Below are positions 1 to 377 of a DNA stretch of 377 nucleotides, one piece after another. Every line of letters starts with the position of its first letter. The first letter of the stretch is position 1. The translations under genes and the position numbers were made by a program. The notes beneath the pieces are model-generated. The model saw nothing but the letters and a program-made list of their open reading frames with translations, searched no databases and was not told where the DNA came from. Origin of the DNA: Escherichia coli. GTDB taxonomy: Bacteria; Pseudomonadota; Gammaproteobacteria; Enterobacterales; Enterobacteriaceae. The stretch lies in the NCBI RefSeq assembly GCF_003334385.1, contig NZ_QOWN01000187.1. One strand, 5' to 3'.

Positions 1-377
1 CACGATACCATTGCCAGAGTTGTATCCTGTATCAGTCCTGCAAAATTTCACGAGTGCTTTATTAACTGGATGCGTGATTGTCATTCTTCAGATGATAAAG
101 ACGTCATTGCAATTGATGGAAAAACGCTCCGGCATTCTTATGACAAGAGTCGCCGCAAGGGAGCGATTCATGTCATTAGTGCGTTCTCAACAATGCACAG
201 CCTGGTCATCGGACAGATCAGGACGGATGAGAAACCTAATGAGATCACAGCTATCCCTGAACTTCTTAACATGTTGGATATTAAAGGGAAAATCATCACG
301 ACTGATGCGATGGGTTGCCAGAAAGATATTGCAGAGAAGATACAAAAACAGGGAGGTGATTATTTATTCGCTGTAAA
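1..377 (+). CDS. ISAs1-family DDE transposase (H-repeat-associated protein), internal fragment; 5' and 3' ends lie outside the window
   Basis: Frame +1 (codons at 1-3, 4-6, ...) is open across all 125 complete codons. The translation contains blocks I recognise from E. coli H-repeat/ISAs1 transposases (yhhI/ydcC/ybfD group): [85 protein letters not shown]. The composition is that of a real protein, unlike the R/S/L-rich frame +2 translation. Recognition is from memory, not a database search. No gene symbol is given because several near-identical paralogs exist and 125 residues cannot distinguish them. Confidence 0.88.
1..377 (+). mobile_element. Interior of an ISAs1-family insertion sequence (H-repeat element); terminal inverted repeats and target-site duplications are not in the window
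   Basis: The window is wholly occupied by the transposase ORF. ISAs1-family elements are known to be single-ORF IS elements of roughly 1.2-1.5 kb, so the ends should lie several hundred bp beyond each side. Hand-counted GC is 160/377 (about 42%). Confidence 0.8.

Follow-up and report, generated by a model that had tools for sequence, protein, structure and literature searches.

The window, i.e., the whole stretch of 377 nt of Escherichia coli DNA that was analysed (42% G+C), is, with a probability of about 95%, an internal segment of an ISEc1 (H-repeat) transposase gene that is read in frame +1, and the ORF that had been called in its frame +2 is a shadow ORF. The fragment of the ISAs1-family coding sequence occupies the window from end to end (1..377, plus strand) and comprises codons 71–195 of a 378-aa protein, together with two bases of codon 196. 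Two domains are recognised in its translation, namely the C-terminal end of the N-terminal domain DDE_Tnp_1_assoc (PF13808; 1..72 of the plus strand, residues 1–24 of frame +1, model positions 65–88 of 88, E 2.1e-4) and the N-terminal half of the catalytic domain DDE_Tnp_1 (PF01609; 94..375 of the plus strand, residues 32–125, model positions 3–106 of 200, E 3.2e-15). Their order, PF13808 and then PF01609, is that of the ISAs1 family transposases, and both domains are those which an earlier note on this DNA, made from the letters alone, had expected a Pfam search to find in frame +1.

The assignment to the family is carried by the NCBIfam equivalog model NF033564 (ISAs1 family transposase), with which the frame +1 fragment aligns end to end at model positions 43–167 of 314 (E 5.7e-53; 180.1 bits, the curated cut-off being 70), and by the nucleotide identity of 99.7% between the window and a coding sequence annotated as "ISAs1-like element ISEc1 family transposase" in the nearest copy (L001 3791–4927). 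The window aligns to L001 4001–4377, at an offset of 210 nt from the start of that coding sequence (0 modulo 3), and, therefore, frame +1 of the window is the annotated frame, entered at codon 71 of the 378-aa protein. Frame +1 was also matched by PHROG 16731 (E 8.4e-61) and weakly by the IS4 model of NCBIfam (E 0.012), and neither frame +1 nor frame +2 had a match among the defence systems of PADLOC. The earlier proposal of an ISAs1-family DDE transposase in frame +1 is borne out by the score of the equivalog model and by the in-frame identity to the ISEc1 coding sequence; the insertion-sequence gene of which the locus represents a fragment has long been known and is nearly ubiquitous in E. 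coli, and as such the finding is already known.

The ORF lister presents a different picture of the same bases, with a plus-strand ORF of 121 aa in frame +2 (11..376, TTG start) as the sole ORF of at least 60 aa, as had been said before, and with three minus-strand ORFs of 27–52 aa. Frame +1 is free of stops across all 125 codons of the window, in agreement with the earlier reading; the chance of such a frame is about 2.7e-4 at the base composition of the window. Frame +2 has one stop only, the terminal one at 374–376, and frame +3 has 15. It had been supposed that the track missed frame +1 because of the missing stop and of a single internal ATG at 70–72, of which the first part stands and the second does not: there are four ATG codons in frame +1 (nt 70, 193, 271 and 310) and one TTG (274), all of them being internal Met or Leu codons of the transposase. 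The actual cause is that the lister, by its own description, omits ORFs running off either end of the source, and frame +1, having no stop, is such an ORF. Leucine, arginine and serine abound in the frame +2 peptide (14.5%, 12.1% and 11.3%, respectively), as was noticed at first sight. The Rfam scan of the window (E <= 1) gave no match, and the tandem-repeat scan found none.

The two frames differ in the pattern of substitutions, which was examined by comparing the window with copies of 96.6, 96.8, 93.9 and 79% identity, with dN/dS calculated by the Nei-Gojobori method. In comparison with the intact copy of an Enterobacter plasmid (L006, 79%), the substitutions are distributed as 13, 11 and 55 over the first, second and third codon positions of frame +1; dN/dS was 0.05–0.2 for frame +1 and 1.5–2.6 for frame +2, so that purifying selection was not detected on frame +2 by this measure. 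In the same intact Enterobacter copy, frame +2 is interrupted by six stops and frame +1 by none.

A genuine overlapping (overprinted) gene in frame +2 was, nevertheless, considered, since the 121 aa read from the TTG lie within a stop-free run that exceeds the expectation. In the full coding sequence, the open run of frame +2 extends over 136 codons (nt 176–586; L001 3966–4376; positions 2–376 in the window), and under a null model of synonymous-codon permutation, with the protein kept, the mean longest run was 54 +/- 16 codons, with P(>=137) of about 5e-4 for frame +2 and, when any one of the five alternative frames is allowed to count, of about 0.04. Thus, the run is not a typical chance ORF, though nothing indicates selection on frame +2. 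The longest frame +2 runs in the intact ISAs1 genes of Enterobacter, Chondrinema and Photobacterium are 43, 41 and 70 codons, respectively, and the long run is confined to the ISEc1/ISEc5 lineage of E. coli; it is read as a lineage-specific accident, by which a real gene has one of its other frames open over this stretch.

The frame +2 peptide also has database matches, which may seem to favour such a gene, and the prediction that there would be none was wrong as worded, though right in its point. In a collection of 5.8 billion proteins, 140 matches were found at E <= 1e-3, mostly of 194 aa and with PF13808, whose source names, among the matches listed, are E. coli or Shigella only. Eleven of them were read: in some, the ISAs1 frame +1 N-terminus passes into a frame +2 tail, with the junction differing from entry to entry; others are mosaics that change frame more than once; two (P0002 of 134 aa and P0003 of 129 aa) are frame +2 ORFs by themselves, called on contigs of about 1 kb; and one (P0013) is a fusion to an unrelated N-terminus. 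No homologue of frame +2 independent of this DNA family was met among the 140 matches, as judged by their E. coli or Shigella names and by the sequences read, which are chimeras or mis-calls from the same DNA; what the matches document is a mis-call and not a conserved protein. The searches with profile models point the same way, as Pfam, NCBIfam and PADLOC gave nothing for the peptide, permissive thresholds included, and PHROGs a single non-significant match (E 0.71). With dN/dS of 1.5–2.6, a frame closed in the diverged copies and other ISAs1 genes lacking a comparable run, the overlapping gene was rejected and can be regarded as extraordinarily improbable; the view of the earlier note that frame +2 is a shadow ORF has withstood the comparison, and the conserved frame +2 hit that would have spoken against it did not appear.

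The uniform length of the chimeric entries deserves a separate consideration, because a -1 frameshift anywhere in codons ~59–195 of the gene leads to a product of 194 aa, and many such chimeras are found in the public protein sets. The constancy is explained by the single frame +2 stop, at which any -1 shift upstream of it ends. One may suppose from this, and from the unusual length of the frame +2 run, that ribosomes undergo a programmed -1 frameshift here, in the manner of IS1 and IS3, which would give a 194-aa protein with the N-terminal domain PF13808 alone, regulating transposition. However, the junctions lie after residues 65, 83, 111 and about 120 in different database entries, i.e., at four places and not at one conserved slippery site, and, therefore, the chimeras are to be ascribed to independent frameshifts (mutations) or to assembly errors; besides, neither the intact Enterobacter copy nor other ISAs1 genes keep frame +2 open. 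No frameshifting is known to us for the ISAs1 family. Programmed frameshifting of the IS1/IS3 type was rejected, as no single conserved site joins the two frames, and it is held to be very improbable. Truncated inhibitor proteins damp transposition in Tn5, IS1 and IS911, and, by analogy, the 136-codon run might conceivably be tolerated or even favoured if -1 shifts, ribosomal or mutational, yielded a stable 194-aa N-terminal-domain protein with a damping effect on transposition, to which we likewise give very little credence. The preferred reading of frame +2 remains that of a shadow of the transposase gene.

The catalytic residues of the transposase were sought in an alignment of the 378-aa protein with ISAs1 transposases of 40–51% identity from Bacteroidota, Cyanobacteriota and Gammaproteobacteria (Vibrionaceae, Yersinia), seven sequences in all. 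The aspartate D172 (motif DAMGCQ) and the glutamate E306 (HWxIEN) are invariant in the alignment, D172 being present in 7/7 sequences from three phyla, and D109 (IDGK) is conserved in 5/5 of the aligned sequences that cover its column. The window contains the GAT codons of both aspartates on the plus strand, at 115..117 for Asp109, the putative first catalytic Asp of the DDE triad, and at 304..306 for Asp172, the putative second one, the roles being assigned from the alignment; E306 lies downstream of the window and was read from the 99.7%-identical relative. Together, D109, D172 and E306 probably constitute the catalytic DDE triad.

The structure predicted from the shallow alignment of seven sequences is of low confidence (mean pLDDT 60.6). 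In this low-confidence model, D109 follows the strand 105–108, D172 follows the strand 168–171, and the secondary structure elements are ordered b1-b2-b3-a1-b4-a2-b5, the order that an RNase-H-like core should have; between D172 and the Glu helix, the model places a beta-rich insertion, and E306 sits on a long helix. When the low-confidence full-length model was compared with solved structures, the Tn5 transposase (4dm0_A, E 1.2e-3, probability 1.00) came out as the best match and the Tn5 inhibitor as the fourth, all other entries being noise. The match to the Tn5 fold and the RNase-H-like order of the model lend some weak support to a DDE fold. The search of solved structures by sequence revealed no detectable similarity, with only a chance match to CheY (E 1.1).

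The window encodes the end of the DDE_Tnp_1_assoc domain and the first half of the RNase-H-like DDE catalytic domain, with D109 and D172. A mechanism may be proposed by analogy with the DDE transposases of the Tn5/IS4 type, in which the protein would bind the 11-bp terminal repeats of the element, and the metal-binding acidic triad would cleave and transfer the element ends. The gene product is most likely a Tn5/IS4-like DDE transposase that would act on the 11-bp termini.

These termini were mapped by aligning four copies of the element, from an Rhs locus, from K-12 yhhI (at rhsB) and ydcC (at pptA), and from an IncFII Enterobacter plasmid. These contexts are unrelated, and the copies are homologous from CAGGGAAAGA to TCTTGCCCTG, which gives an element of 1,291 bp (that of Enterobacter measures 1,294 bp), with the coordinates L001 3647–4937, L002 1147–2437, L003 1147–2437 and L006 1144–2437. 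The window corresponds to nt 355–731 of the 1,291-bp element, and a single ORF of 378 codons is contained in the element in the four related copies compared. The terminal inverted repeats are of 11 bp and imperfect (10/11 positions matching). The repeat finder, with its minimum length of 12 nt, reported no terminal inverted repeats, because these are of only 11 nt with one mismatch and fall under that minimum. Despite the well-kept 11-bp termini, target-site duplications, i.e., flanking direct repeats, were not evident at the four copies compared. The protein may be an active transposase, as its membership in the family suggests. According to a genome paper, H-rpt is counted among the insertion sequences, though its transposition has not been observed (PMC3032704).

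The distribution of the element was surveyed in complete genomes of E. coli, of which 5,311/5,426 (98%) contain related copies, almost all of them chromosomal, at a median of 4 places per genome (range 1 to 10); in 4,976 records, the best place is 95–99% identical to the window. The named genes yhhI, ydcC and ybfD are copies slightly further from the window than the best matches of 99.7%. The nearest copy (L001) lies between RHS-repeat genes, with an Hcp gene on its upstream side and the gene of "RHS element protein dsORF-h1" just downstream, and its neighbourhood of RHS-repeat genes and dsORF-h1 is the classical setting of an H-repeat. In E. coli, the element is often situated within Rhs elements. 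The K-12 yhhI adjoins rhsB, and ydcC (beside pptA) and the plasmid copies are not located at RHS genes.

Such a wide occurrence, together with the residence of copies at the named chromosomal loci, the strong purifying selection (dN/dS 0.05–0.07), the lack of evident target-site duplications at the four copies and the reported absence of observed transposition of H-rpt (PMC3032704), could be taken as signs that the H-repeat protein is a domesticated DDE protein retained by the host for a cellular role, e.g., in rearrangement of the Rhs loci. It is, however, an unlikely explanation, as the terminal inverted repeats and the precise length of 1,291 bp are kept in surroundings that are unrelated, plasmids and O-antigen clusters among them, which is what past mobility predicts, and as genomes differ in their number of copies, between 1 and 10 places. 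A transposase gene of an insertion sequence is retained as the preferred description of frame +1.

The state of this particular copy is a separate question, on which a single base bears. At base 235, the window has C and its best E. coli match has T, and this is the sole mismatch between them; the resulting codon CCT (235..237, plus strand) encodes Pro in place of Ser at position 149, within the invariant motif KSNEI. S149 is invariant in the alignment of the seven ISAs1 transposases, and a Ser codon stands here in every other copy examined. The 44-mer with C235 was absent from the species-representative genomes and metagenome contigs searched. A sequencing error or a rare polymorphism could account for C235, or else it may mark an inactive copy. 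It can be argued that frame +1 is the ancestral coding frame and that this copy is an inactive or decaying pseudogene, for the private S149P falls into an invariant motif, the exact variant was not found in the genome and metagenome collections searched, and many copies of the ISEc1 family are annotated as frameshifted or truncated pseudogenes, with the copies L005 and L007–L009, which have indels and stops in all frames, being decayed. On the other hand, frame +1 of the window is fully open and is one base from an intact annotated coding sequence, and one base may just as well have been misread in sequencing or represent a polymorphism that is tolerated. The pseudogene is, on balance, a rather doubtful alternative, albeit one to be kept in mind, and the window is preferably treated as a segment of an open transposase gene.

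Several observations on the surroundings of other copies were made in passing. In L003, a frameshifted ISAs1 pseudogene (61–1187) is located directly upstream of the intact ydcC copy (1291–2427), and, therefore, two H-repeat elements stand in tandem in that E. coli chromosome. The decayed H-repeat copy of L005 (1204–2465, 86% identity, several stops) is unannotated and lies between cpsG and perB, next to gndA, in an O-antigen gene cluster of a 438-kb record labelled as plasmid; several other matching "plasmid" records are of 4.8–4.9 Mb and are evidently chromosomes. In the phage collection, the whole window was matched at 95.5% by a 1,547-bp record named "Escherichia phage ECO95 1-6-1" (OR845860.1, H81), and a copy of 74% identity was found in the Salmonella houtenae whole-genome shotgun contig AGRM01000002.1 (L014), where it is split into short "hypothetical protein" calls. 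The intact ISAs1 element of 79% identity in the IncFII Enterobacter conjugative plasmid (L006 1291–2427) lies beside a gene with the ImpA domain of type VI secretion (1–953), a setting that recalls the chromosomal copies of E. coli with their T6SS/Rhs surroundings.

The value of the case is practical and is not that of a discovery, as nothing in it alters the knowledge of ISAs1/H-repeat elements. If a list drops the ORFs running off the window ends, the real gene may be missing from it and a shadow ORF may be left as the sole candidate, and the main use of the result is as a warning on the ORF tracks of short windows. The concern of the earlier note that an annotation built on the track would mis-call this locus has proved justified by the frame +2 "proteins" of public collections, which already include stand-alone entries of 129–138 aa, along with many chimeras of 194 aa.

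In comparison with the known systems, the window is closest to the ISEc1/H-repeat group (yhhI, ydcC, ybfD and relatives), with which it shares 96.6–99.7% nucleotide identity over its whole length and the same reading frame, and from which it differs by the one base that turns S149 into P, found in no other copy examined. The termini of the element in this group are CAGGGAAAGAT and CAGGGCAAGAT, and the ends of a complete ISEc1 copy are written as CAGGGAAAGAT...ATCTTGCCCTG. Within the wider ISAs1 family, whose founder is ISAs1 of Aeromonas salmonicida, the window passes the NCBIfam model, though only as a fragment (model positions 43–167 of 314), and the ISEc1 protein has in common with the members from other phyla the motif HWxIEN and motif residues amounting to 21 protein letters, not shown here; for the E. 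coli subgroup, transposition has reportedly not been observed (PMC3032704). With the DDE transposases of the Tn5/IS4 type, the ISEc1 protein shares the Pfam catalytic domain DDE_Tnp_1 and, in the low-confidence model, the beta-rich insertion between the second Asp and the Glu helix, whereas its N-terminal domain (PF13808) is a different one.
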